A stretch of 45,929 nt of DNA from Elsinoe ampelina (Eukaryota), in the NCBI GenBank assembly GCA_010093995.1, contig ML992504.1:1554360-1600288 (forward strand). Reading direction: 5' to 3'. The position numbers and the translations under genes are program-made. The notes beneath the pieces were generated by a model. It saw nothing but the letters and a program-made list of their open reading frames with translations, made no database searches and had not been told where the DNA came from. This document shows, in pieces, positions 6,064 through 45,929 of the stretch. Each line of letters begins with the position of its first letter. Within the stretch, counting starts at the first letter, position 1.

Positions 6064-6133
6064 AGTACTCGCCTGGAGGCATTTGACAAGATGGGTCGGT
6101 GCACGTCAATTATATCTACAAAAGCCTACCATC

Positions 6134-7089
6134 TTACACGCTGGCGTTGAATTCATCAACAATCTCCCTGGCAGCCTTGACAATGTCAATGGCCCCGGGA
6201 GAGTCAGAGTGGCAGCACAGAGATACCTCATGGTCATCTATGGGCAATTCAACCTCTTCTCCAGTCACAGCTGTCACGCTGGAGTTCTCGACCTGATTCC
6301 GGATGTGCTTCTGCGTCTCTTCGGGCTTCCAAGCTCTGTGACCGTTAGCGCCATTCCCGCATTTAAGGGTATCACCAGGCCTACTTCTTCTTCCGATCAA
6401 TTACCAGGGTCCGATCCTTGTTGTACTGTACGTCGCCATACAACTCAGCCGTGAAAGGTAATTCGAGCTCCTTCGCGACTTGTTCGTGATAGGTGCCAGC
6501 TAGACCAAAAACTCGAGTCCCAGCTGGAACGCCAGCATAAGCTGCTCGACACGTCTCCACATCTCTGTACATCATTCCTGAGATGGATCAGTGAAGGGCG
6601 AATCTGATCACGGAATCTACCAACCATAGAGAACGCCATGTGGCTTTACGTGGTGCAGAGGCACATTCTCCGCATCCAAGAAACCCTTGAGAGCGCCTAC
6701 CTGGTACCGGACCATGGCGGTAATTTCTTCAGGAGACATTTTGATCTCCCTACGGCCAAAACCCTGGATATCTGGTAGTCCCGGATGCGCACCTATAGCG
6801 ATGTTGTTCTTCTTGCATGCCCGCACTGTTTCCTGCATGATGAGTGGGTCACCAGCATGAAAGCCGCACGCAATCTAGCAAAGGTCAGATCATACAGCTA
6901 CTACACGAATGTAATCATAGAGCGACATGCATTTGCATGATCAATCAACGGGATGAGCTCGTCGTCTGGTCCGCATTTGAAATTACCGTATCCTGTATCG
7001 GTTATCAGCGAAGCTTATCCAAAGCGTCATTGCCCCGCACCTTCACCCAGGTCAACATTGATCTTGACCTTTTGCTTCAGTCGACCCAT
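6134..7089 (-). CDS. lamB: LamB/YcsF (5-oxoprolinase PxpA-like) protein; 5 exons, introns 6993..7040, 6875..6930 (GC-AG), 6578..6624, 6336..6384
   Basis: Reconstructed protein [47 protein letters not shown]...[16 protein letters not shown]...[10 protein letters not shown]...AELYGDVQY...[11 protein letters not shown] carries all LamB/YcsF signature motifs. Confidence 0.93.
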
Positions 7090-7232
7090 TGTGTCACTTC
7101 CCAGTATTGATTTTGAGATTATGTACGACTAGCTGACAAGACAGATTGTAGCTCGATTGAATATACCAAGCTCGGTTCCGGATTGATCGTCACGGCTCCA
7201 AAGCACGACTCCAACGCCTCCAATTGACCCCT

Positions 7233-7321
7233 CTTATCACCAACCCGAGGAAGCTCGATCTGCCAATCCCACCTCCAATCGATCCTGACCTCACCAAGGC
7301 CCCATCTACCCCTCCTTATCA
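7233..7321 (-). promoter_or_regulatory. Two TGATAAG GATA-factor (AreA/NIT2-type) sites in the lamB/lamA divergent promoter
   Basis: CTTATCA at 7233..7239 and 7315..7321 in the 366-bp intergenic region. Consistent with nitrogen metabolite control, but short motifs are weak evidence alone. Confidence 0.4.
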
Positions 7322-7455
7322 GCCATGGCACACAACCGGCACCTGTCACCTGGTAGGCCCCCATTCACTCCCTCCAGGATTACTCCGGACCAATGGGCAC
7401 CTACATATCCCCCCTCCCACTACCATCCCCGATACCACCAACCTAGCATGCACCC

Positions 7456-10400
7456 ATGGAACGCATCAAATCCATCCTCATAGCCAACAGAGGCGAAATC
7501 GCCGTCCGCCTCTGCCGCACCGCCCGAAACCTCCACCTACGCACCATCGCAATCTACACCAACGCCGACGCCGCCTCCCTGCACGTGACTGCAGCTGACG
7601 AAGCGATCCTCCTATCAGGTCCAGACAGCACAGCCTACACCGACGGCGACGCCATCATCGCCATTGCGAAGGCGCAGGGCGCCGACGCGATCTTTCCTGG
7701 TTATGGCTTTTTGTCGGAGAACGCGGACTTTGCGAGGAGGGTGAGGGGGGCGGGGCTGGCGTGGATAGGCCCGGCGCTCGAGGTAATCGAGAAGTTTGGC
7801 GTGAAGCATGTTGCGCGTCAATTGGCGGAGGAGGCCGGGGTGCCTGTTGTGCCGGGCAGCAAAGGGCTACTGCGGGGCGGGGAGGAGGCGGAGAGGGAGG
7901 CGCAGAGGGTGGGGTTTCCGGTCATGCTGAAGGCTACGGGGGGTGGTGGTGGGATGGGGTTGGTAGTCTGCAGGGATACAGGGGAGGTGAGGAAGGGGTT
8001 TGAGATGGTGAAGAGTAGAGGGCAGGCGTTGTTCAGAGACTCTGGAGTGTTTCTGGAGAGATACGTGGAGAAGGGTCATCATGTTGAGGTGCAAGTATTT
8101 GGGAACGGGCAGGGTAAGGCAGTAGCGTTTGGTGAGAGGGAATGCAGCATTCAGCGGCGACACCAGAAGGTGGTCGAGGAGTGTCCGAGTCCGTTTGTGG
8201 AGAGACACGATGGTTTGAGGAAGAGGTTGTGCGATGCTGCTGTCAAGTTGTCGGAGAGCATCAACTATGGTTCTGCTGGGACGATTGAGACACTAGTCGA
8301 CGATGCGACTGGGGACTTTTACTTCCTGGAAATGAATACACGATTACAGGTCGAGCACGGTATCACGGAGCTCTGCTACAATGTCGACCTTGTGGAACTC
8401 ATGATCAAACAAGCTGATGCTGAATTGGCTGGCAAAGGCGGGCTCGAGGCGAGCTATTTGCAGTCGCTTGTACCTGAAGGACCCTCTGGGCATGCCATTG
8501 AGGCGCGAGTGTATGCTGAGAACCCACTCAAGGGCTTCACTCCTGCTCCTGGACTGCTACAAGATGTACACTGGAACGAGATTGAGGGCAGCCGCATAGA
8601 TACCTGGGTCTTCACAGGAGCAAGGGTGACTCCAAATTACGATCCGATGATTGCCAAAGTCATGTACCATGGCGAGACTAGAGAGCAATCAGTCAAGGGC
8701 ATCCTCGAAGTCCTTTCTGGCTCACGAGTATCTGGACCTCCTACCAACCTTGACTTCCTGTCCCAAGTCATTCTCTCAGACGACTTCGCCTCTGGCAATA
8801 CCATCACTGCTTTCTTGGATACATTCGAGTATTCACCATCAGTAATCGATGTGATCAGTCCTGGAGCTTACACACTTATACAAGACCTACCAGCTCGGCC
8901 TTCCGTGGGGAAAGGCATCCCGCACTCTGGTCCAATGGACCCAATGGCTTTCCAGATTGCCAACATGCTCGTTGGGAATGATCGGACGAGGGAAGGCCTT
9001 GAGATCACCCTCAATGGCCCAGAGCTTCACTTCATCGGCGCTGCAGTCGTAGCGCTGACTGGCGCGTCTATGGATTTCCTGCTCGACGGCGAGACTGTAC
9101 AGATGTGGTCGAGGATACATATCAAGCCCGGCCAGAAACTCAAGATTGGAAAGACTCTTGCTGGTGGGTGCCGATCGTATCTGGCTGTGTATGGTGGGTT
9201 CCCATCAGTGGCTGAATACTTTGGCTCGAAGAGCACTTCTCCACTTGTAGCGATCGGAGGCTACCAGGGTCGCCAACTTGCACCGGGAGATCTATTGTCA
9301 ATCTCAAAGGATATTCCGGATGCTTTGTCCTCCCAAATAGGTTTGCCTGAACACGTCGTACCAAAATACGGGGACGATTGGGAGATCATGGCCATGGTCG
9401 GTCCCCACTCGGATGGATACTTTCTCCCTGAGGATATCGAAATGATCTACTCGACGAAGTGGAAAATATCACACAATGCCAGTCGGAGTGGCATTAGATT
9501 GGTAGGGCCAGTCCCCAAATGGGCACGCAAGGATGGTGGCGAAGGTGGCTCACATCCGAGTAATCTGGTCGAATACGGCTATCCTCTCGGAGCACTGAAT
9601 TGGACTGGTGACGATCCCTGCATCTTTCCGGTTGATTGTCCGAATTTTGGCGGTTTTGTATCGAGCACTACGATCATTCGAGCTGAATGGTGGAAGATGG
9701 GACAAATCAAGGCTGGTGATACCATGCAGTACAAACGGGTGACCTTGGATGAAGCCCTGTCACTACGCAAAGACAACGACGCTTTCCTCGACAGTGTAGA
9801 GTCAGCTATCAAGTCGAACAGCTCACTTGACTCTATCAAGCCTATCAATGCTCACTTTGAGCCATCATCGATTGGCGACGACGCGATCATCTGGCAACGT
9901 GAAGCTACCGACAAACTTCCTCAAGTCCGCTATCGTCAAGGAGGTGACGACCATCTCATCGTCGAATACGGCAATGAGCAATTTGACCTCAACCACCGCT
10001 GCCGGGTGACCGCCCTCGAAACCGCGCTCCGCTCCCCTTCAGCCCCCTCCTTCCTCAAGTCCCACCTCATCAACACCGTCGGCTGCTGCACCTCCCTAAC
10101 CCTCTACTACAACGGGGCCCTCCTCCCCCGACCCCGACTAATCTCCCACCTCCAACACCTCGAAACCCTCCTCGGCGACCTCTCCACCACCAAAGTCCCC
10201 AACCGCACCTTCACCCTCCCCCTCTCCTTCGAGTCCCGCCCGCAGACCGATGCCATCCAACGCTACATCGAGACCCAACGACCACACGCCCCATACCTCC
10301 CGGACAACCTCTCCTTCGTCGCGCAAAACAACGCCTTCACCCCCTCGCAGCTCAAAGACATCTACCTCACGGGCTCCTTCCTCGCCGTCGTCGTCGGCTT

Positions 10401-11213
10401 CTTCTGCGGCAACACCGTCTCCCTCCCCGTCGACCCACGCCAACGCATGTCCTGCCCGAAACAAAACCCCTCGCGCGTCTTCACCCCCGAGGGGACGGTG
10501 AGCTGGGGCGGTAGCTGCATGAGCATCTACCCCGTGGACAGTCCAGGGGGTTACCAGATGACGGGACGAACGGTGCCTTGCTTTGATTACTTTGGGTGGA
10601 AGAAGGGGTTCAGCAGGGACAGGCCGTGGTTGTTCCGGGATTTTGACGTTTTGACGTATAAGAGGGTGAGTGAGGCGGAGTTGGATGAGGTGTTGGCGCG
10701 GTTTGGGAGTGGGAGGTATGAGTTTGAGTTTGTGGAGGGGGAGTTTGATATGGGGGCGCATAATGGGTTGTTGGAGCGGACGAGGGAGGAGGTGAGGGGG
10801 ATTAGGGAGAGGCAGAGGGTGGCGCAGGGGGAGATGGTGAGGGCTGAGGAGGAGAGTTTGGTGAGGTGGAGGGAGGAGAAGGCGAGGAGTAGGGGGGATG
10901 AGGGGCTGGTGGAGGGGTTGGTGAATGGTGAGTCTGATGTGGGCATGTTGGGTGTGGGTGCTGATGCTGGGCAGATCCGAAGATTGTTAGTGTTGATGCG
11001 CCGGTGGATGCGAATGTTTGGAAAGTGGAGGTCAAGGAGGGAGAGATGCTGGGGGCGGGTAAGATGGTGGCGATATTGGAGGCGATGAAATTGGAGATTG
11101 GAGTGAACGCGCCGGAGGATTTGACAGAGGGGACGAAGGTAGAGAAGCTGCTAGTCTTGCCGGGTGAGACGATCAAGGCAGGTGGGAGGATAGCGCTGCT
11201 ACGGACACCTTGA
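7456..11213 (+). CDS. lamA: Stand-alone urea-carboxylase-like biotin enzyme (biotin carboxylase + AHS2/AHS1 carboxyltransferase + biotin carrier), LamA-like; intron 10928..10974
   Basis: ILIANRGEIA, PGYGFLSEN, KATGGGGGMG, RECSIQRRHQKVVEE and FLEMNTRLQVEH (BC domain); GIPHSGPMD, GGYQGRQL, SRSGIRL (AHS2/PxpC-like); SPGGYQMTGRT (AHS1/PxpB-like); last exon gives ILEAMKLEI (biotinyl-Lys). There is no N-terminal amidase domain, so it is not a Dur1,2 fusion. Divergent from lamB as in Aspergillus nidulans. Confidence 0.9.
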
Positions 11214-11323
11214 TCACTCGCGACTCAAGGGAATGCGTGTGTGACAGAGCTTATTGGTTGGTATATTCGAAACGAGCTACAAAAGAGAGACAACTATGTA
11301 CAACCATCTTCACCTCCCCACAA

Positions 11324-12773
11324 TCAGACAATCTCATACGTAATCTCATCCAACGCCTCCTCCATGTCACCCATCGACCTCGCCCTCCTCAACGGACCCT
11401 TGACAGCAGTCTTCTCCTTGCTCAACCCCTTCAAGAACTTCTCCCTGTTCTCGCCCGTCAAGTTCAAGTGCTCAGCGACCATGGTAGCCGGGGTCTGCGC
11501 CAGCCACTGCTCGGTGCTAAAGTCCTCGAACTTGGGGGCGCGGAACATCTCCAGCATCTCGACCGGCTCGTCGCCGATGTTCTCGACGTAATGAGCGTGG
11601 TTCTTGAGGACGATACCGACGTCGCCGGCGACGTAGTTGAATGTGCGTGCGGCACCGGCGGCGGCGAAGATGGTGACGCGGGCGTGGCCGCGGAGGAAGA
11701 AGGACCATTCGTCGGCGTTTGGGTGCCAGTGGAGCTCTCGAAGACCGCCGGGGACGATGGTGACGTGGGCTGCGGCGGTGGTCTTGGAGACGGGGAAGTT
11801 TGTGCTGTCTGTGATGCGGACCTCGCCACCAGGAAACTTGATGGGCTTTTGCTGGAGCATGCGGTGGGTGAACCGGGTCTTGGATTGGATGACTTGCTTG
11901 CGGTCGGCTTCGAGGGAGCCGGGCATGGTGCCTTGGAAGATGTACTTTTCTTCTTGGGAGAGGGTGTCGAAGACGCGTTGGTCGATGCGGAAGTTCTTGC
12001 CTAGGACTGACTTGGGAGTTCGGGCTAGGTAGTCGGTGAGGAGGAACGTGCTGTCTTCGGAGAAGCCACCGTCGTCGAAGATGAGGAGGAACTCGGTGCC
12101 TTCGTCGCCAAGACCTGTGATGTGTTAGAGAATAGAAGTAGGGTAGAGGTTGAGAAACATGCCTTGGATGCTGTGAGGGTAGCCGGTGGGGAAGTACCAC
12201 AGGTCACCCTCGTTTAGGTCATCGATGTAGCAGCCACCCTCGACGTCAAGTACTGTAATACGGCAAGATCCAGCAATAATGTATGCCCATTCGCTCTCGT
12301 TGTGCCAGTGGAGCTCACGGTAGACGCCAGGGCCGAGACGCATGTTGACACCGGCGATCTCCTTTGAGCTTGGCAGCTCACGGACGGTCGTCTCTCGTGC
12401 CCAACCACCTTCCTCCAAACGCATGTGCGAGTCGGTAAAGGACCTTTGAAGTGTAAGTCTTGGCATGATGTGGCTCGATATTTCTGGAGACCCACCACTT
12501 CATGTTTGGCATCTTGCCCTTGTCCGTGTTTGGTGGGCGAACGATGTCAGGGTTCTGGCGAGCACGGTCTGGGTTTTGGGGACCCAAGATATCGCTTCCC
12601 TTGCCACCACGCCTGGGTTGAGGACTGTGACTAGCATCAGAATTGTCCGGATACAGCTTTGATGGCAAGACTACTCACACATCGCTCTTGAGAGGAGCCA
12701 GACCAGCTTTGGCATAGGCATCGAGACTCCTCTTGCGGCGCTCCTCGAGCACACTTGGACCTACGTTTGTCAT
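11324..12773 (-). CDS. oxdC: Oxalate decarboxylase (Mn bicupin), no signal peptide; introns 12625..12678, 12444..12495, 12115..12162 (GC-AG)
   Basis: Spliced product includes VPQPRRGGKG..RQNPD..MKWSFTDSHMRLEEGGWARETTVRELP..MRLGPGVYRELHWHNESEW..DLWYFPTGYPHSIQG..FLLIFDDGGFSEDSTF and a second cupin RELHWHPNADEW..HYVEN. The lid motif SEDST keeps the Glu associated with decarboxylase rather than oxidase activity. Confidence 0.93.
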
Positions 12774-12862
12774 GATGGAAATGTGTCTGGTGTGTTTGAT
12801 GTGGAAAAAGGAATGCAAGATATCAGGAAACTGAGAAGCTACATCAAATCCGAAGCTGGACA

Positions 12863-13135
12863 GCCAAGGGACCAGGGTGGCTAATATCTATCGGGGATCT
12901 CATCTCGATGTCGAGCTGTAGTGCTTTCACGTCATCACTTTGTGGAGCTCCGGCACATTTCCCCGCTTTAGATTTGAGGGAACTTGTGTTTTTTGGCGCA
13001 AACACGTCCCGCCTCGCCAAATCAATCACATTGCCAAGAAACAGGCTGCTCCCTCAAGAGGCTTAGTCGCGACAAGGCTAGTCAAGACGAGACAAGACTG
13101 TCGACACATCACCGACCTTTAAAGAGACCGCCAAG
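12863..13135 (+). promoter_or_regulatory. Three GCCAAG (PacC/Rim101 consensus GCCARG) sites in the oxdC/DUF1275 divergent promoter
   Basis: GCCAAG at 12863, 13033 and 13130, all in the same orientation within a 580-bp intergenic region. Confidence 0.4.
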
Positions 13136-13353
13136 GCATCGGGTCCATTTGCTTGCGCAGCCGGCATATCAGGGCAAGATAATAATCAAAGCTTGTCTGG
13201 CTTGTCTCGCCGAGAGAAGACCGGCAAAAGGACGTGCCTTCCTTTCCCCGCCCTCAATCTGAAGTAGCCACCATCACCTCGCGCCTCTACAGTACTTGTC
13301 CAGGGAACTTATCTTCCGAGTCGTCTCGCTCATTGACCTCTCAACCACCAATC

Positions 13354-14187
13354 ATGGCCGACGTCGAGGACCCTACCGCCAACAAGGACAAACCATCCAT
13401 CCGAGAATATTTCGACGAGACTGTGACAGAGGCCTGGACTGATATCCTTCTGATTCTCAGCTGCTTCACTACTGGTCTACTCGATGGCGCAGTATTCAAC
13501 GTCTGGAGCTGCTTCGTCAGCATGCAGACTGGTAAGTGGCTGATCTGCATCATCCCATGTCAATCCGTTTGACCTTGCACAGGAAACACTGTCTATGTCG
13601 GCCTAGGCTTTTCTGGACAGCCCAAAGACCAGCCATGGAGATGGCTAAAGTCAGGGACTGCCATTTTCAGCTTCGTCCTCGGTTCCTACCTCTACAGTAG
13701 AGCAATGAGGTACTTGGGACCTCTCAAGCGCACCACCATCATACTGGCATTCATGGTCGGAGCACTCCTCTGCTTCGTCAGCGCCATTCTTGTACAAGTC
13801 GGCATTGTACCACCAAATGCTGGTCGTACCATCCCCGAGAACAACATCGTACTAGTCCCTCTCTGTCTGCTCTCCATATCCGCAGCTGGACAGATCATTG
13901 TGTCTCGCTTCCTCGGCTACAGTGAATTAACCACCGTGGTGCTCACCAGTGCCTACTGTGATCTAGCATACGACGAAAAACTCTTCACTGCACCTCTCAC
14001 CAAGAACTCGAAACGTAACAGGCGGGCAGCATCAATGATCATGACTTGCGTCGGCGCCATCGCTGGCGGTTTCTTGACGTACGGAGGCGACATTGCACCT
14101 GCCATCTGGCTTGCAGGTGGACTCAAAGTGCTCATCGGACTTGCTCTCATCTTCTGGAAGTCAAAGGCGCCTATTCAACTCGAGTAG
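13354..14187 (+). CDS. DUF1275 (YoaK-like) multi-pass membrane protein; intron 13532..13582
   Basis: Splicing GTAAGT...CAG gives FTTGLLDGAVFNVWSCFVSMQTGNTVYVG (DUF1275 F..MxTGN signature); the second half has GQIIVSR..LTTVVLTSAYCDL..RNRR..GAIAGG; about 6 hydrophobic segments. Confidence 0.85.
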
Positions 14188-14580
14188 AGCAATCCAGTCC
14201 ATCTACCGGAGCAGATACGGTACCCACTGACAAGATCGATCGGCTCCTCCGGCATATACCTCCCCCAACACACTCCAAATTGGCGTCCATTTCGCGCGAC
14301 TAAGTAGACTGCGCCTTGGATACTCAAAAGCTTTGAGTCTTTGGCCATTGTACATACAGCATACTACAATATCACTATTCCTGTCTGCCCCTCCTTGGTA
14401 CCGATATCGGCTGCACCTTGAGCTCCCACGAGTCAGGCCGCCGGATTCCTGACCCTTGTTGAATTGACATCACCGCTTTGCGCATGTTGACAGAAGTGGT
14501 TGCAAGACTGAAGACAAGTATAAACTCTCTTCTCTTTGCTTCTTCCTGCTGTTGCAATTCCCCATCGCAGGCATCCCACC

Positions 14581-14720
14581 ATGTCACAAAATCTCAAGCT
14601 CTACACGGCCGGCACGCCCAATGGCCAAAAGATTCACATCGCACTCGAGGAACTCGGCCTCCCTTAACTTACGAAGTCCACAAAATCGACATTTCCAAAA
14701 ACGAGCAAAAAGAGCCTTGG
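14581..14720 (+). pseudogene. Glutathione S-transferase (Ure2/YfcG-like) N-terminal remnant
   Basis: Reads MSQNLKLYTAGTPNGQKIHIALEELGLP-[TAACT]-YEVHKIDISKNEQKEPW. A 5-bp insertion creates a stop and frameshift, and the expected INPNGRIP motif and C-terminal domain do not follow. Confidence 0.85.
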
Positions 14721-15114
14721 TCAAGGACCAAACTAATTCGTCAACAGTCGTGGAGAAGCTTGAGCTTACCCCCACCGGCGCCATGGAAGGGAGATAAGCT
14801 TTCAACTACCGGAGATGGTTCGACAATAAACAGCTGACAACATCCGGTACATCAGGGGCGGATGGCATGCCCATTGGACCACTACCAGTGGTGAAGCAAT
14901 AATGGCGATGAGCAGCGCACTTCATGCGTGGAAGAGTGAGGTGGCCAGCAGACGATCGGATCGGAGCGACATGGTATCGGCAAACAATATCCGAGATCCA
15001 TGCGTCTACTAAGAGGACAACCAGTTCTAGTGCAGGAACAAACGATTCATTCGAGGACTACATCCGTCTCCCTTCCTCCCAAACCACTCTAACACCTCAA
15101 CCCAACCTCGCCAT

Positions 15115-16698
15115 CTAATGATCCTCCTTGATATCAATCTCCGTCTTATGGAACTTCCTCGCCGACACCTTCCTCTCAAACAAAATATCAATCTCCCTAA
15201 ACGACCGTCCCCTCATCTCGGGCAACTGGAAGAACGCCGTGATCAAACACAACAACCCCGTCGCCCCCCACACATACCCACACTTGCCACCCAAATTCGC
15301 CCCGAGCGGATTCAACATCCACGACGCGAGGAAAATACACGGCAACTCGATGATGTAGTACGCCGCGCGCCCCATCCCCGTCGTGAGAGGCCGGAGTCGC
15401 ACGGCTGATGTCTCCCCGATGACGACCCAGGACGCCGGGGCGGGACCGAGACAGAAGAGGACCGAGACGATGAGGCCGAGGGACGCCTGCGCGAGGGAGG
15501 CAGAGTTGGAGGCGCCGACGGAGCCGGCCACGCCGAGAGCGATGAGGAGGATGGTGTTGGCTGCGGAGCCCCAGAGGTAGATTGGGCGCCGACCGAAGTA
15601 GGATGTCAGTACCCAGGAGCCCATGACGAAGATCATCTGCAGGGCTGAAGTGATCAAGCCGAGAGCGAAAGCGAGGTTGTCGTCGATGCCGGCTTGTTGG
15701 AAGAAGTAGACGGCTTGGTTGGCGATGAGGTTACCCGTGAGGTTCTGGGCGAGGTAGACACCGCAGACGATGAGGGTGCGGCGGAGGTCGGTGCCCTTGA
15801 AGAGTTCGGGGATGCTGGGCTTGTTGGCGGTCGATTCGTGGTCGACGATACGCTTGACCATTGCGAAGGAGTCTTGCGCGTTGACCATGCTCTTGCGGCC
15901 CAGACGCCCGATGGCTTTGAGAGCGTCGTCGAAGCGGCCTTTGCGGGTCAGCCAGTAGGGGGATTCGGGGGCGAAGAAGATGAGGATGGCGAGGGGCGTG
16001 GGGAACATCCATTGCAGGGCGATGGGGACGCGGTAGGCTGAGGGTCCGGTGATGCTGTTGTAGTGGTAGGTGATGGCGCCGACGATGATGCTGCCGATGG
16101 CCCAGAACATTTGAAGCATTTGGGTACAGGGAGCGCGGAGCTTGATAGGAACGATCTCGCTGCAGTAGGCTGGGGCGTTGGCGATGAAAATACCCCAAGG
16201 GATACCCTCGAGGAGCTGAGCGGCGAACATCACTGGGAGCGAGTTGGCGAAATAGAAGATGAAGATGAAGGCGTTGAGCAGCATCAGGCCCGTGATCGTG
16301 GCCCATCGGTAGCCCAGCCAGGTGGTTAGAGGTCCTGCCACGAAGACACCGATGAGAGCACCGAGTTGTCCGGCAACTTGGAGAGATGACTGCCACTTTG
16401 TGACAATGACATTCTTTCCAGTTGCTGGATCCAAGACACCGTATTCGTCCTTGAAGGCACCCAGAGCCAAGAAGTTACCGATGAGGAAGACGTCGTAGGA
16501 CTCCATGATGATGGTGCAGGACATGACAAAGGCCCAGAAAGATGCCATCGGGTACATCTTGACAGCCTCGAGGACAGTCATGTTGTGCTCAAAGGCTTCG
16601 CCATCGATAGCCCCAGCGTTGATGTCCGGCTTCTCCGGGTGGTGGTGGTCTTCATAGACGACAGACTCTTGAGCCTTGACATCGTCGAGGTTGGACAT
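15115..16698 (-). CDS. MFS sugar porter, maltose/alpha-glucoside permease-like (527 aa, intronless)
   Basis: IIMESYD, WQSSL, EGIPWGIF..APAYCSEIVPIKLR, PIALQWMFP..APESPYWL, DLRRTLI, FGRRPIYL, GETSAVRLR, LPEMRGRSFREIDILFERKVSARKF; about 12 TM segments. Confidence 0.9.
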   Translation of the reverse strand: MSNLDDVKAQESVVYEDHHHPEKPDINAGAIDGEAFEHNMTVLEAVKMYPMASFWAFVMSCTIIMESYDVFLIGNFLALGAFKDEYGVLDPATGKNVIVTKWQSSLQVAGQLGALIGVFVAGPLTTWLGYRWATITGLMLLNAFIFIFYFANSLPVMFAAQLLEGIPWGIFIANAPAYCSEIVPIKLRAPCTQMLQMFWAIGSIIVGAITYHYNSITGPSAYRVPIALQWMFPTPLAILIFFAPESPYWLTRKGRFDDALKAIGRLGRKSMVNAQDSFAMVKRIVDHESTANKPSIPELFKGTDLRRTLIVCGVYLAQNLTGNLIANQAVYFFQQAGIDDNLAFALGLITSALQMIFVMGSWVLTSYFGRRPIYLWGSAANTILLIALGVAGSVGASNSASLAQASLGLIVSVLFCLGPAPASWVVIGETSAVRLRPLTTGMGRAAYYIIELPCIFLASWMLNPLGANLGGKCGYVWGATGLLCLITAFFQLPEMRGRSFREIDILFERKVSARKFHKTEIDIKEDH

Positions 16699-18299
16699 GT
16701 TGGCGGTGATGGCCTGAAGGGAAGAGAGAGATGTATCGAATCAATCAGAGTGAAATGAGACCCTCAGACTCGACTGAACAAGAAGAATAAATCATGGGAA
16801 TTGATCAGTCTTTATGTGACACGAGATGGTCGTGGAAGCCCCACGTATCCCCACCGGAGGCCCGGATATGTCGGGGTTGCGAGCTGGAGAATATGGTTGC
16901 GGGCCAGGCGAGACAGGTCTGGTTATGCTCGGATATGTTTGTGACAGGATCTCGGAGACCATTGCATCATCGGCAGGAAGTGATACTCAATACCCGGCAT
17001 AATTACGGCTCCGTTTTTGGACCTTGACTGGTCGTGTGCCACCAGCTAGCGACGTGCAGTCCACAGTAGAGCAGAGATGTGTCGCCTGGACGAAAGCGGC
17101 TGAAATTGCGGCGGCATGCAGACGAGGGCAACCTAAGATCCGTCAGTGCTGACAAGCTTTGCAGCGTCTGAAGCTTAAACCTACCAGAAGCTTCGTCAAT
17201 GCTTGTCTCACTCGATCGAGACGTGGAGACCAATTCTGGGGACTCCGGAGGGGATTTGTGCGCACCGCAAGAGCCTCCAGAGTATCAGCTGCCCCGTTCA
17301 GCCTCCGCACCGTGTCCACTTTGCAAGCTGGAGAGGCATTTCCGCCTTGCTCACAGTAAGTTAACTTATCTGCTTGGTCGTCTCCGGAATCCAAGGGTGG
17401 GTAAATCAGCCGTATCTTGGTCCCCATGAAAGGTGCAGGATCCGGATGAGCAGGTGTATTCTGTCCCGTCCAGCATAGTGTGTCACCAGCCAACAGCTCA
17501 AACGGTCATGGGTCGAGGGTCTTCAGCTCATGTGGCAAGATCTGCAGTGTCCTACGGCCCGGATCTGGGGAACAAAGCACGTGTGAGGAGGGCGAGCTTG
17601 CACTCGAATTGACATGGAAACTCTTGTGAGGTCTTGCGCGTAAGAGTAAGTTAATGGACGGCCTCGAGCGTTGTCACCAGCTTGGGAGTGCCTTACCTGC
17701 GATTTGTCCGCTCTCGTAGTGTGGATGAGTCTGCTATTTCGGTGTTGATTGCACCAATATGTCAGAGCAAGCATTGAATGAGGTGTTGAGGTGTGAGGTC
17801 ATGTCCTGAGCCTCGCCAAGTCAGTAGTTGCCGACTTGGCGATGGTCCCTGGCGGCCTTGAGGTCAGAGCCGCGTGAATATGCGGCTTCGGAAACCCGGT
17901 ATCCCCACGTTCACACGATGCTTTCTCTCGAAGTGAAACTCTGGTCGACCTCGATCTTTGCGAAACACACCCAATTATATTATAAGTCGAACGCATGTGT
18001 TCTAGATCCTATTCGCGAGCAAGACATCGGTCAGCCACGTAACTTACTCAGCACGTTCGAGATCAGCACAGCACGATCGATATGAAGTTAGACGATAAGT
18101 TAACTAACTAAGTTGTAGTAACAACTTAAGCTCGGTCGCGTCATCTGTCCACATGAGATCGTGCGTAGATTGCTCTGGCCATCATCCCATAAGTTACGTC
18201 TGAGATGAACGTCGACATCGCTGCCTTCAGCCTTCCTCATGGGATGACAGACCTCATGGCCTCGAACACTGTTGAGCCTCTCTCTAGCTTGCTACGACG

Positions 18300-41231: not shown

Positions 41232-42019
41232 CTTGTAGTTGTGTATGGTGTTTTGTGGTTGTCGAGGTGTGGATGTGGTGTTGTCGTGGTAGGTTGGAGT
41301 GTCCAGCTCAACTGGAGGAAACGCGACCATATATACCTCACAACGGATTGATCCCGATTTACCTCATAGACTTTTCAGTAACCCTGAGCTCACCCGTGTC
41401 GCAGAGCTCTCGAGCATTCTCTGCGTGATGTCACTTTGGACATTACGGACTTTGCGGATGTGATAGCTCCAGAGAAATGCCACTTTTTTGTGGAGATCGG
41501 CACTGCAACTGCTGTTTGCGGCAACGGCAACGGCAAGAGAAAGCAGATGCGGTCGCGGACAAGAGCGGCCGCAACCCGAGCTGCAGGAACCTTTGCGTAC
41601 AGACGGGTATTATACGTTGTACGAATTAGATCGATCATGTGTGCTCTACCATTCACATTGATCCCGTACAACAACTTCTCCTACGCCGGTGTAAGCTGAT
41701 CAACAACTCCACCACAAACAAACACAAGCTGATGGAGAGCTGATGGAGAGCTGGATTATAATACACCAACGGTTGATTGATCAAGGCTATCTGAAGCTGC
41801 ACGGCTGAAAGAAGAGCTGGAAGGAAGCTGCTCAAAGCCGCTGAGTCATCCGCCAAGCCGACACCGGACATACAGTACATAGTCCGTCCGTGGTTCTGTC
41901 AACCTCGGCAAGAGCTGTGGTGCCAAGAAGGACCCTGATTCAGTGCACCCAAAGTTGAACTGAGACTCATCAACGGTTATACCAATTTATGATCAATTTC
42001 GACAGTTATTGTCTTATTC

Positions 42020-42165
42020 TGTTAAAGCTTAGGAGTTCTGTCAATTTAGTTATCTCTTAGGTTATTAGGTTAAGTATTTATATAGTAAGAATCTACCTAA
42101 TTTTAGTGGATTAGGCAGTAATAAATCTTCTCTTTCCCTACACACAAGTTAATAGTTATAAGCCC
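42020..42165 (+). repeat. Putative 5' LTR (42020..42154) and primer-binding site (42155..42165)
   Basis: Starts TGTTAA and ends TTAATA (RIP-compatible with TGTTGA...TCAACA), immediately followed by GTTATAAGCCC, which resembles the copia-type GGTTATG(A/G)GCCC PBS. The 3' LTR is outside the window, so the boundaries are unconfirmed. Confidence 0.5.
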
Positions 42166-44806
42166 GGTATAACTACCCCTATATAAGTAGAGTATTTAGT
42201 TGTCTTCCTATTCTATCTATTAGTTAATTCTCTATTATCTCGCTTTTTAAGCACTAGAATCTGTCAAGTACTGCCTTAACTACAACTATAGGATTTAGGT
42301 GTTAATAAAGAGATAAACAACTATAGATACTAACATACTAACAGCTAGAACACCTATCATTCTTACTACATTAGCTGAATAGGCTAGCTAGCTATATATT
42401 ATTAAGACTAGAGCTTTAAACACTAAGATCTAGCATATTATTAATCCCTAATAGACTATTAAACTAGAAGGACTCCCTAAGCCTTAGAGGCTAGATATAT
42501 TAGATTCTAACTTCTTAGCACTCTTCTAGATCTATAAGGAGGAGTAAGCTTAGCATAACAAGTAGCATAAGGCATTAGTAGATCTAGCTAGCCTTATTTA
42601 GTTATTAATTGCACTATAAGTTCTTATAGTTATCTAACTAAAGGGAGATCCCTATCTATAGGCTATCCTTAGAGTATTAAAGAATAGATTTGTACTATCT
42701 AATGCTATAATCTAGCTAGAGGTTAAAGCTCTCTAGAGGAGACAACTCTCTAGTCTATTATTATAGAACATAGACTATTAGCTTTAGTAATAGGAAGAGG
42801 TTATAGACAAGGCTAGGAATTACAACCTACTAGAAGCTTAAGGCTTAAGGCTATAGAGAGATTTCTTACTCTCTATCTTAAGGACTAAACTAGTATTTAC
42901 TAATAAATATCTTATTAATCTAGATTTACTAACTCTGCTAACTATGCTTAAACTAATTACTAAGTTTAGATAGTTTTATAAACTTTATAAGCTATATAGT
43001 ACTACAAAGGCTAGTAAGGGAGCAATAGTATTCCCTATAGCTACTAAGGACTCTATAAAAGAGCCTAGTCCTACTAGGGAGCCTAGATGTGTATACTAGA
43101 AGCGGCATAAGTAGAGTAAGTGCTATTACTTAAATAAGTATCTAAGGCTAGAAGAATAGTTACTAAACTAATAGACCCTTAAGGAGGTTAAGTAAAGGCT
43201 TAATAATAAGGCCTTAAGGGAGAAGGTTAAAGCTATCCTTGCTAAGGAGGCTTACCTTTATAAGGGGTTATCCCTACTAGTGCTAATTAACATAGCTATA
43301 ACTATTAGATTATACTTAGTATTTATCTTAGCTACTAGTAACATCTTAAGTTTATAGATTCTAGATTCTAAAGCAACTAATCATATCTATAATTACACTA
43401 TAAAGGACAGATATAAGGTTACTAGACTTATAGAACCTTATAAGTAAATATTCTATAGTAACACCGCTCTTACAATTAAGAGCTAGGGATTAATTACTAT
43501 TATAGCTCTCTATAAGGGGCAGCTAGTAACTATCTAACTTATATAGGTAGCTTATATGCCATTAATAATAACTAATCTAGTTAGTCTTAGGAGGTTCCTA
43601 AAGGGTAGAGTCTACTAAAACACTTAAACTATAAAGATTAATTATAAAGGGAAGGTACTCTTCTTAGTAACTCTAAAACATAATTAATATATAGTAGAGA
43701 ATAACTCTAAAGCTCCTTATGCTATTACTATAGCTATAGGAGGCACTAGAGATCCTTATCTATTAGTATTTACCTTAGTTATAACAAGGACTAATTAATC
43801 CTAGTATAAAGTTATAGGCTATCTAAGTATAGAGTCTATTAATTACCTCTTAACTGCTATAGTTAGTAGTAAACTAACTTTAACTAAGTCTAACTTGTAT
43901 TAACTAATTTATCTTAGGTTACTATATTAGACTTGTGAGCTATTAAATGCTTAGAAGCTTATCTTAAGGAGCCCTAACACTAAGATTGTTATAACTAAGC
44001 CCTTTAAAAGGATTACCTTTAACATTATTATTAATAGGTTTACTAGCTATAATAAGGCAAGGTATATAAGCTATTTTGCCTATAGGGCTACTAACTATCA
44101 CCTTGTAAGCAGTTATACTTATAGATATAAGATTAATAAAATCTGTATTAAGATAATTACCTATATTAAAAGTAATCTTAGCTTTAAGGTTAGATTTATC
44201 AGAAGTAACAATAAAGGAGCCTTTAGCCTTAGATTTACTATCTTCCTAGATAGTAAAGGTATCTAAAGAGAGCTATCTACTCTATATACTCTAGTATAGA
44301 ATAGTTATAGTAAAAGGATAAGGTCTATACTATTAAGGAGAGCAAGGGCAGTAGCTATCTTTGCTAATCTTCTAAGGGAACTATACCCTAAACTATATAG
44401 GTTAGTAGCCTATCTAATAAATAGAACACCTCTTAAGAAGCTAGACTAGAAAACCCTCTTTAAGCTAGTTCATAGATGCCCTCTATCTATATCCTATCTT
44501 AGACCACTTAGATACAAGGCTTATGCCCTAGATTATTATATTATAAGTGGTAATAAGCTTATACTAAGAGCACACATTAGTTATCTAGTTAGATATAACT
44601 TAACTAACATATTTAGGATCTTTATACTAGCCTTAAAGAAGGTTATTAGAACTAGGGATGTTAGATTTAATAAGACTTAGTTTTATAAGCTAGAGGAGTA
44701 GCCTTAGCCTTAGCCTATTAGACTACTTAATCTACTAAGACTGCTATAGAAAGTTAAGGAGAATATACCTTAAACTAAAGAGGTAACTAAAGGTCTATCT
44801 GTACTG

Positions 44807-44878
44807 TAGAATCTAGTTTAGAATCTAGTTTAGAATCTAGTTTAGAATCTAGTTAAGAATCTAGCTTAGAATTCAGTT
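44807..44878. repeat. 12-bp tandem repeat (TAGAATCTAGTT) x ~6 in the INT-RT linker of the copia element
   Basis: Four perfect and two degenerate copies read directly; the unit length preserves frame. Confidence 0.85.
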
Positions 44879-45929
44879 TAGTAGATTCTAACTAAGGAAC
44901 TAAATAATTACAGTTTATTATTATAGTTATAGGCTTAATAGGCTCTATTACCTCCACTGGATAATTATAGTCTACTATTATAGTTATAGACCCTAGAGCT
45001 AAACCCGGCTTAGATCTAGGAGGCTACATTACTAGAGTAGTTCTATAATACTCTAGCCTCTCTACCCTTAATAGCTATATAGCCTTTACCTCTATCTAAA
45101 GCTAAAACTGTAAGGAGTAAGGTAGAAGCCCTAGCTAAAGAGGTGACTAAGGAGCCTAAATAGCCTAGAAGAAGGATTGCTATAAGGTTAGCTAACCTAT
45201 TGCCTAAGTATATTCTTACTATAAGAAGGACTAGGAAACTAAGAAGGTAGGCCTACATTACTAGTCTTATATAGCCTTAGGAGGCTCCTAGATATTATTA
45301 AGCTTTTAATGCTTATCTATTAATAAAGCTAATCTAGCTAAAGCTAGAACTAAGGGATAATCTACCTCTACTACTAGCTAACATTAGGGAGCTATAAGCT
45401 TATCCTTATAGGGAGCAATTCTAATAAGCAATAAAGGTAGAATTGCTTACTCTCTATTTAAAAGACACTTAGACTATTATACTTACATCTTAAGCTATAG
45501 GGAAGCTAGTGCTACTAACCTAGGTCTTTATATATAAGACTAATAACAAAGGAGAAGTTATTAAACACAAGGTAAGGCTTTATATAAGAGGTAATCTTTA
45601 ATCTATAGAGTTAGAGACTTATATAGCTATATTAGCTACTAAGATTTTTAGAATGCTTATAGCTCTCCTTACTTACAAGGATATAGAGGCTATCTAGATA
45701 GATGTTATTAATGCTTATATTAATAGTCCTATTAATAAGACAACCTACTATACTATTCTACCTAGATTTAAGCTTATACTAGAGGTGCTTATAAAGGACT
45801 ATCCTAGTATAGTATTATCTAATATAATCCTCCTACTAAAGAAGGCACTCTATAGCCTTAAACAAGCACTAGCTCTCTAGTATATAGAATTTACTACTAC
45901 ACTAAAGAATCTTAGATTTACTTAGGCCC

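Follow-up and report, generated by a model that had tools for sequence, protein, structure and literature searches.

A divergent lamB–lamA pair and a divergent oxdC–DUF1275 pair side by side in Elsinoe ampelina: probably two independent modules

The stretch of Elsinoe ampelina DNA analysed here (assembly GCA_010093995.1, contig ML992504.1, positions 1,554,360–1,600,288 of the forward strand; 45,929 nucleotides, referred to as the window) carries four closely packed genes at window positions 6134–14187: lamB, lamA, an oxalate decarboxylase gene (oxdC) and a gene for a membrane protein of the DUF1275/YoaK family. The locus probably consists of two functionally independent divergent gene pairs that were juxtaposed by rearrangement within the genus Elsinoe. 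Our best reading is that a lactam module of a known type has come by chance to lie beside a conserved module formed by a cytosolic oxalate decarboxylase and its membrane partner. An earlier note, made from the letters of this DNA, had identified the four genes and arranged them in two divergent pairs with gaps of 366, 110 and 580 bp, which Pfam searches and spliced gene models bear out. It had further proposed that LamA and LamB release oxalate that feeds OxdC, and this part is not supported. Only the oxdC–DUF1275 pair hints at something new; the lamB–lamA pair is of a known type.

The argument turns on the junction between lamA and oxdC, whose convergent stop codons are separated by 110 bp (11214–11323). 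In named fungal genomes synteny was read from consecutive locus tags or accessions of homologues. By this measure DUF1275, OxdC and LamA are consecutive only in E. ampelina (KAF2225216/15/14) and Elsinoe fawcettii (KAF4554206/07/08), and no conservation of the lamA–oxdC junction, which would characterize a functional four-gene cluster, was found outside the genus. The earlier note had itself named adjacency confined to this lineage as the observation that would speak against its pathway, and a lamA–oxdC neighbourhood in two Elsinoe species is what we find. Dothideomycetes sp. NU457, the nearest outgroup, encodes OxdC (in an 85% cluster) and LamA (in a 75% cluster) on one contig, with tags that are 36 apart (MBLNU457_3542 and _3578). 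In sp. NU459 the DUF1275 gene (g5954) and the LamA gene (g4926) are on separate contigs. LamA also occurs, at 85–86%, in Elsinoe australis and Sphaceloma murrayae, but neither species appears among the 103 DUF1275 matches or among the 120 OxdC matches listed.

The two pairs also differ in their phylogenetic distribution. Relatives of LamA are spread evenly through the Dothideomycetes at 66–78% identity, whereas close relatives of OxdC and DUF1275 are patchy and occur in Elsinoe, Aureobasidium, three Onygenales and several Tremellomycetes. Scans with OxdC exons extended the comparison to 160 OxdC loci, 80 from metagenomes and 80 from bacterial and archaeal species genomes. When searched with spliced LamA and LamB by tblastn, none of the 80 metagenome loci and none of the 80 species-genome loci gave a match. 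Nine metagenome loci encode an OxdC that is at least 60% identical; six of these continue for at least 450 bp past the OxdC stop codon, and LamA follows in none of the six. Furthermore, the 366-bp divergent promoter region of lamB and lamA (7090–7455, with four CCAAT boxes) and the 580-bp divergent promoter region of oxdC and DUF1275 (12774–13353) share no more k-mers of length 8–10 than do shuffled sequences, a weak test.

These observations have to be weighed against the pathway proposed in the earlier note, in which LamA and LamB would cleave an oxalyl-amide such as oxamate or oxalurate in an ATP- and biotin-dependent reaction, OxdC would remove the oxalate, and the DUF1275 protein would move substrate or product. 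Such a pathway would be in keeping with the contiguity of the four genes, with their transcription in the same runs and with the retention of the arrangement in two Elsinoe species; LamA also scores just under the cut-off for urea carboxylases, which leaves room for a substrate other than urea. A further point weighs against the independence of the two pairs: in NU457-like assemblies LamA, OxdC and DUF1275 are found together on a single contig (475793), so that some loose linkage exists outside Elsinoe as well. This is to be expected where, as in this fungal class, genes tend to stay on the same chromosome. The absence of adjacency in NU457 and NU459, of LamA from the six informative metagenome loci and of both Lam proteins from all 160 OxdC loci speaks against one pathway, as do the two species with LamA and no OxdC or DUF1275 among the matches listed, the unequal distributions and the lack of a common promoter motif. 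In addition, the argument from the oxalate exporter FpOAR was built on an apparently wrong family assignment (discussed below), and the available part of one source names lamA and lamB as lactam catabolism genes of the Aspergillus nidulans AmdR regulon, which serves the use of omega-amino acids and lactams (PMC8016842). We therefore regard a single four-gene pathway as extremely improbable. An amide-to-oxalate pathway would be new biochemistry if true, but the evidence here does not support it, and nothing in this analysis points to oxalate as a product of LamA and LamB.

What, then, does each pair do on its own? The first gene, lamB (6134–7089, minus strand), encodes a PxpA-like LamB/YcsF protein of 251 residues. 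Its open-frame model was built by hand from five exons (7089–7041, 6992–6931, 6874–6625, 6577–6385 and 6335–6134), and the Pfam family LamB_YcsF (PF03746) spans three of these minus-strand exons (6134–6874). They cover profile positions 31–113, 114–180 and 180–238 of 239 with 139.2, 32.3 and 37.8 bits, respectively, against a cut-off of 22, and exon 3 aligns with residues 33–115 of PDB entry 2dfa (E 2.7e-31). On the PxpA model of NCBIfam (NF0038xx) a single 83-residue exon was scored, reaching 129.3 bits relative to a cut-off of 226 that is set for the whole protein.

Its divergent partner lamA (7456–11213, plus strand; hand-built exons 7456–10927 and 10975–11213) encodes 1236 residues with a biotin carboxylase, the carboxyltransferase (CT) subdomains A-B and C-D, and a biotinyl domain. 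On 7447–11213 of the plus strand Pfam lists Biotin_carb_N, CPSase_L_D2, Biotin_carb_C, CT_A_B, CT_C_D and Biotin_lipoyl. The matches to PF00289, PF02786, PF02785 and PF00364 place LamA among biotin-dependent carboxylases, and its last exon holds the Met-Lys biotin attachment motif (...LEAMKLEI...). LamA has the same domain order as urea carboxylase, for example the urea carboxylase part of Kluyveromyces lactis DUR1,2 (3va7/5i8i), and aligns with 3va7 from end to end (query residues 5–1126, E 8e-249). It narrowly misses the urea-carboxylase equivalog TIGR02712, with 1265.6 bits for a cut-off of 1303.85 and positions 2–1200 of 1201 aligned. LamA differs from the urea carboxylases in this sub-cut-off score, in the lack of a fused or adjacent allophanate hydrolase and in its partner, a PxpA-type LamB.

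The earlier note had equated LamA and LamB with the bacterial 5-oxoprolinase PxpABC. This analogy is a loose one: it may extend to LamB, one exon of which matches the PxpA model, and it applies to residues 464–786 of LamA, which score above the cut-off of the shared domain model TIGR00724 (235.3 versus 230.2 bits). It does not hold for LamA as a whole, which stays far below the equivalog cut-offs of PxpC (NF045499, 148.1 versus 500) and PxpB (TIGR00370, 39.3 versus 145.55) and contains a biotin carboxylase and a biotinyl domain, both missing from PxpBC. Since it comes so much closer to the urea-carboxylase cut-off, LamA is a urea-carboxylase paralogue and not a fused PxpBC.

A LamB/YcsF protein encoded beside a large protein with biotin carboxylase, CT_A_B, CT_C_D and biotinyl domains, here in divergent orientation, recalls lamA and lamB of A. 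nidulans, a likeness drawn from description and gene names and not from sequence comparison. The A. nidulans genes are reportedly divergent as well, with a 2-pyrrolidinone phenotype said to have been described by Katz and Hynes in 1989. By this analogy the lamB–lamA pair probably corresponds to the A. nidulans module through which fungi use lactams and omega-amides. LamA, as a biotin- and ATP-dependent enzyme of the urea-carboxylase type, would activate the amide nitrogen in a lactam, 2-pyrrolidinone for example, and LamB, its PxpA-type partner, would complete ring opening and hydrolysis to the omega-amino acid.

The second pair starts with oxdC (11324–12773, minus strand), which has four exons (12773–12679, 12624–12496, 12443–12163 and 12114–11324) and encodes a bicupin of 431 residues. 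Two Cupin_1 domains are found by Pfam on 11324–12499 of the minus strand, and the protein scores 542 bits on the oxalate decarboxylase model TIGR03404, well above the cut-off of 254.2, over positions 2–364 of 367. It aligns over the full bicupin with OxdC of Bacillus subtilis (1j58), sharing RELHWHxExEW and PHSIQ in the N-terminal domain as well as RELHWHPNxxEW and HYVEN in the C-terminal domain. The lid reads FSEDST for FSENST in 1j58, with the glutamate conserved. We take these motifs to be the His/His/Glu/His manganese sites, and the lid glutamate to be the residue that separates decarboxylase from oxidase.

Like its B. subtilis counterpart, the protein has no signal peptide, and the hydropathy of its N-terminus peaks at 0.76. 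This bears out the earlier note, which had described OxdC as cytosolic, and the same trait is shared by its close relatives: a hydrophobic N-terminus is present in none of the 10 full-length relatives with at least 70% identity, compared to 38 of 72 below 70%. Differences from B. subtilis OxdC are the three introns of the Elsinoe gene and a conserved N-terminal extension with an SVLEERR-like motif, which is common to several close relatives. Judged by its sequence, OxdC is a non-secreted manganese bicupin oxalate decarboxylase that would convert oxalate to formate and CO2.

Tremellomycete yeasts (P0117, P0121, P0122 and P0126) are among the closest relatives of this OxdC, with 70–77% identity, above most Dothideomycetes; the DUF1275 protein of Naematelia has 51% identity. 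The sequences suggest that a horizontal spread of the oxdC–DUF1275 pair among fungi is possible.

The gene on the other side of the shared promoter region encodes the DUF1275/YoaK-family membrane protein of 260 residues (13354–14187, plus strand; exons 13354–13531 and 13583–14187), and this neighbourhood recurs elsewhere. In five of the seven named fungal genomes that have both proteins, the tags or accessions of OxdC and DUF1275 are adjacent: E. ampelina, E. fawcettii, Helicocarpus griseus (AJ79_07014/15), Arachnomyces PD_36 (FQN54_007241/42) and Onygenales PD_40 (FQN55_004657/58). A DUF1275 gene also adjoins OxdC in 20 of the 160 scanned loci (17 of 80 from metagenomes and three of 80 from species genomes). 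Four of these are eukaryote-like metagenome contigs, on which the genes are divergent as in E. ampelina. The other 16 are bacterial, and there DUF1275 mostly follows on the same strand, 4–100 bp downstream of OxdC. The earlier note had placed yoaK, a DUF1275 gene, near an oxalate gene in B. subtilis, and these 16 loci show that the two kinds of gene are associated in bacteria as well. In all 20 cases DUF1275 is no further than 1.35 kb from OxdC, and the 761,593 bp of flanking sequence more than 2.5 kb away contain no DUF1275 gene.

A Pfam check confirmed 17 of 18 open reading frames tested as DUF1275, and the assignments in loci L001, L006 and L008 come from a hidden Markov model (HMM) only. 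One hit of the iterated HMM search, in locus L084, was set aside because it is a Na/H exchanger. In a phylogenetic tree 15 bacterial OxdC-linked DUF1275 rows form one clade with a support of 87/93; they correspond to 14 distinct loci, as L162 repeats the genome of L114. This clade spans Acidobacteriota, Verrucomicrobiota and Actinomycetota. In one locus from Conexibacteraceae (L154, 6606–7907) the DUF1275 frame measures 434 residues between stop codons and overlaps the last part of the OxdC match, which may reflect a fusion or overlapping genes.

Published work provides further instances. In Streptococcus mutans a bicupin of the OxdC family (SMU_RS00710) and a protein of the YoaK family (SMU_RS00720), two genes apart, are down-regulated together and belong to an acid-stress locus with malolactic genes, according to the accessible portion of the report (PMC13532258). 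A B. subtilis pangenome table, seen as an excerpt, gives equal presence/absence counts for a YoaK-family protein and oxdD (PMC12712070), and a uctB-oxc-uctC-duf1275 region is described for Acetobacter aceti in the available section of PMC3720670. In the parts of the literature on YoaK/DUF1275 and oxalate decarboxylase that our search covered, no description of oxdC–DUF1275 as a functional unit was found. On this comparative evidence we consider oxdC–DUF1275 to be a separate, widely recurring and conserved module.

Several observations weigh against a tight coupling of the two genes. The OxdC-linked bacterial DUF1275 proteins of L189 and L067 fall outside the linked clade. In Elsinoe batatas, whose OxdC and DUF1275 (P0104 and P0345) share about 99% identity with the E. 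ampelina proteins, the tags are 331 apart on one contig, so that either the numbering is non-positional or there is a break inside the 580-bp promoter. Cirrosporium carries the two genes on different contigs, and in Paenibacillus (G003) long distances separate OxdC and two DUF1275 genes. Most DUF1275 genes, moreover, are located away from oxalate genes; a bicupin neighbour occurs in one of 30 DUF1275 loci of Acetobacteraceae. No oxc or frc was detected near DUF1275 in these 30 loci, which is not evidence of absence, given flanks of 1.5 kb, crude picking of open reading frames and many frames without a Pfam match.

Could the neighbourhood be devoid of functional meaning, a bidirectional promoter kept by chance or a pair that hitch-hiked in horizontal transfer? 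The modest share of 20 out of 160 OxdC loci and the separated genes of Cirrosporium and Paenibacillus would fit such a view. It has to account, however, for the recurrence of both orientations, divergent in fungi and same-strand with gaps of 4–100 bp in at least three bacterial phyla, for the confinement of all cases to 1.35 kb with none in the farther flanks, for the clade formed by the linked bacterial copies, and for the co-regulation of the two genes in S. mutans in the part of that report cited above. We consider a meaningless neighbourhood quite improbable.

If the module is a functional one, the question becomes what the membrane protein contributes. It matches PF06912 (TCDB 9.B.143) with 93.8 bits for a cut-off of 25.4, over exon 2 and profile positions 29–192 of 193; Pfam places DUF1275 on 13186–14187 of the plus strand, and NCBIfam gave no match at 1e-5. 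In the available part of the TCDB paper DUF1275 is listed as uncharacterised and related to the major facilitator superfamily (MFS) (PMC7778945). An AlphaFold2 model based on 41 sequences reaches a mean predicted local distance difference test (pLDDT) of 87.9 and comprises eight helices, two of them short. In a VIA-align comparison MFS transporters fill all of the best 50 rows, the match covering one half at Z-scores of 14.1–9.5, although for helical bundles a Z below about 13 may reflect a common arrangement only. Foldseek against the PDB, which likewise counts against an MFS assignment, returned no match at E ≤ 0.001 and only weak MFS rows.

A homodimer is predicted, with a score of 0.76 versus 0.00 for the best of three controls, at least 99% contact agreement between runs and a partner pLDDT of at least 80. 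In calibration, 21 of 30 proteins whose solved structure is a pair of one chain attained this mark of 0.76, whereas none of 23 single chains did. For eukaryotic proteins the figures were 17 of 29, with only one among the seven that lack an older solved relative, and none of 30 single chains. The predicted interface (residues 56–73, 176–189 and 211–226) includes the family-invariant residues G60, N61, T181 and A218. According to the model, the DUF1275 protein probably works as a homodimer.

We tentatively propose a carrier role for it because a decarboxylase that stays inside the cell depends on import of its substrate or removal of its product. The DUF1275 homodimer would move oxalate in and/or formate out and so let the intracellular OxdC act on oxalate. 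It is thus conceivable, albeit somewhat short of likely, that this DUF1275/YoaK subfamily is a dedicated oxalate-in/formate-out carrier of non-secreted OxdC, built as a homodimeric half-MFS, and that the module occurs in several bacterial phyla and patchily in fungi, perhaps spread horizontally. A precedent for the task is OxlT, the oxalate:formate antiporter of Oxalobacter formigenes, a 12-transmembrane-helix MFS protein that likewise works for an oxalate-decarboxylating route inside the cell. One of its six-helix halves can be superposed on the DUF1275 model (8hpj, Z 12.2, root-mean-square deviation 4.8, 177 residues aligned), a non-specific match since OxlT is one of 50 MFS matches. The DUF1275 protein is half the size of OxlT and shows no sequence similarity to it.

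The pairing could also be functional with a different task for the DUF1275 protein, such as Mn2+ supply to OxdC, proton or bicarbonate handling in acid stress, or the anchoring or regulation of OxdC at the membrane. OxdC does require manganese, as stated in the accessible text of two sources (PMC8254039, PMC6850040). The S. mutans pair is situated, in the portion of the report available, in an acid-stress locus with malolactic genes; the neighbours of the DUF1275 family as a whole are highly varied, and the carrier proposal goes without a demonstrated conserved basic pore-lining residue. On the other hand, the fold resembles MFS-type solute carriers, OxlT included. The A. aceti DUF1275 gene, in the section of that source cited above, accompanies an oxalyl-CoA decarboxylase route that is independent of manganese, and therefore the common factor would be oxalate or formate and not manganese. 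On balance a non-carrier role seems unlikely.

A different argument for an oxalate-related function had been made in the earlier note, which named FpOAR, the oxalate exporter of Fomitopsis palustris, as a member of the DUF1275 family. Both are fungal membrane proteins tied to oxalate, yet they appear to belong to different families. In the available part of PMC10003554 a SNARE-assoc domain is marked in an alignment of FpOAR, HbOT and AtOT, AtOT being the plant homologue of FpOAR, so FpOAR is apparently a SNARE-assoc/DedA protein, an assignment taken from this literature. The window protein has no SNARE-assoc match in Pfam at E ≤ 0.01 and matches PF06912 only; the membership given in the note appears to be wrong.

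The recurrent, position-specific pairing with an intracellular OxdC nevertheless provides a handle from comparative genomics on DUF1275/YoaK, and it yields a concrete hypothesis, namely oxalate/formate transport by a DUF1275 homodimer. Oxalate handling is relevant to plant pathogens in oxalate-rich hosts, to the way in which bacteria such as S. mutans tolerate acid, and to engineered oxalate degradation.

The gene models themselves can be compared with transcripts and annotation. LamA, OxdC and DUF1275 as spliced here are letter for letter identical to the annotated E. ampelina proteins P0224, P0346 and P0344. RNA evidence was taken from the contigs of four runs (X1, X2, X4 and X5, from two studies), with only the bridging of introns being used. 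Contigs join all three oxdC introns and the DUF1275 intron in all four runs, and the lamA intron in one (X2). For lamB one of four introns is joined, intron 4 (6336–6384), in one run (X5); introns 1–3 are modelled from homology only. Because contigs bridge introns, the runs contain RNA and spliced transcripts exist for all four genes. Two introns are of the GC-AG type with a GCATGT donor: the last intron of oxdC (12115–12162), bridged in all four runs, and intron 2 of lamB (6875–6930), one of those modelled from homology. In run X2 the lamA and oxdC contigs stop at 11239 and start at 11245, respectively, within the gap between the convergent genes.

Contigs of X1, X2 and X4 are colinear with the DNA over lamB introns (6100–6954) and extend into the neighbouring cyclin gene, which suggests either overlapping 3' ends with the cyclin transcript or an antisense or unspliced transcript. 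At 13815–13816, within a coding exon of DUF1275, the window has AA where runs X2, X4 and X5 have TG, probably a codon-changing strain difference.

The surroundings of the four genes are readily described. The neighbour on the upstream side of the four genes is this cyclin gene, of the PHO80 type (PF08613) and convergent with lamB. On the other side the earlier note had seen a remnant of a glutathione S-transferase gene, which was not confirmed: four open reading frames in 14203–15057 have no credible Pfam match, even at E ≤ 10. An MFS sugar transporter gene (PF00083, E 8.9e-73) follows at 15118–16740 on the minus strand, 0.9 kb past the DUF1275 gene and apparently outside both gene pairs. Towards the far end of the window, across 42001–45929, the G+C content falls from about 0.55 to 0.30, and this segment is likely an AT-rich, repeat-mutated block of a kind common in this fungal class.

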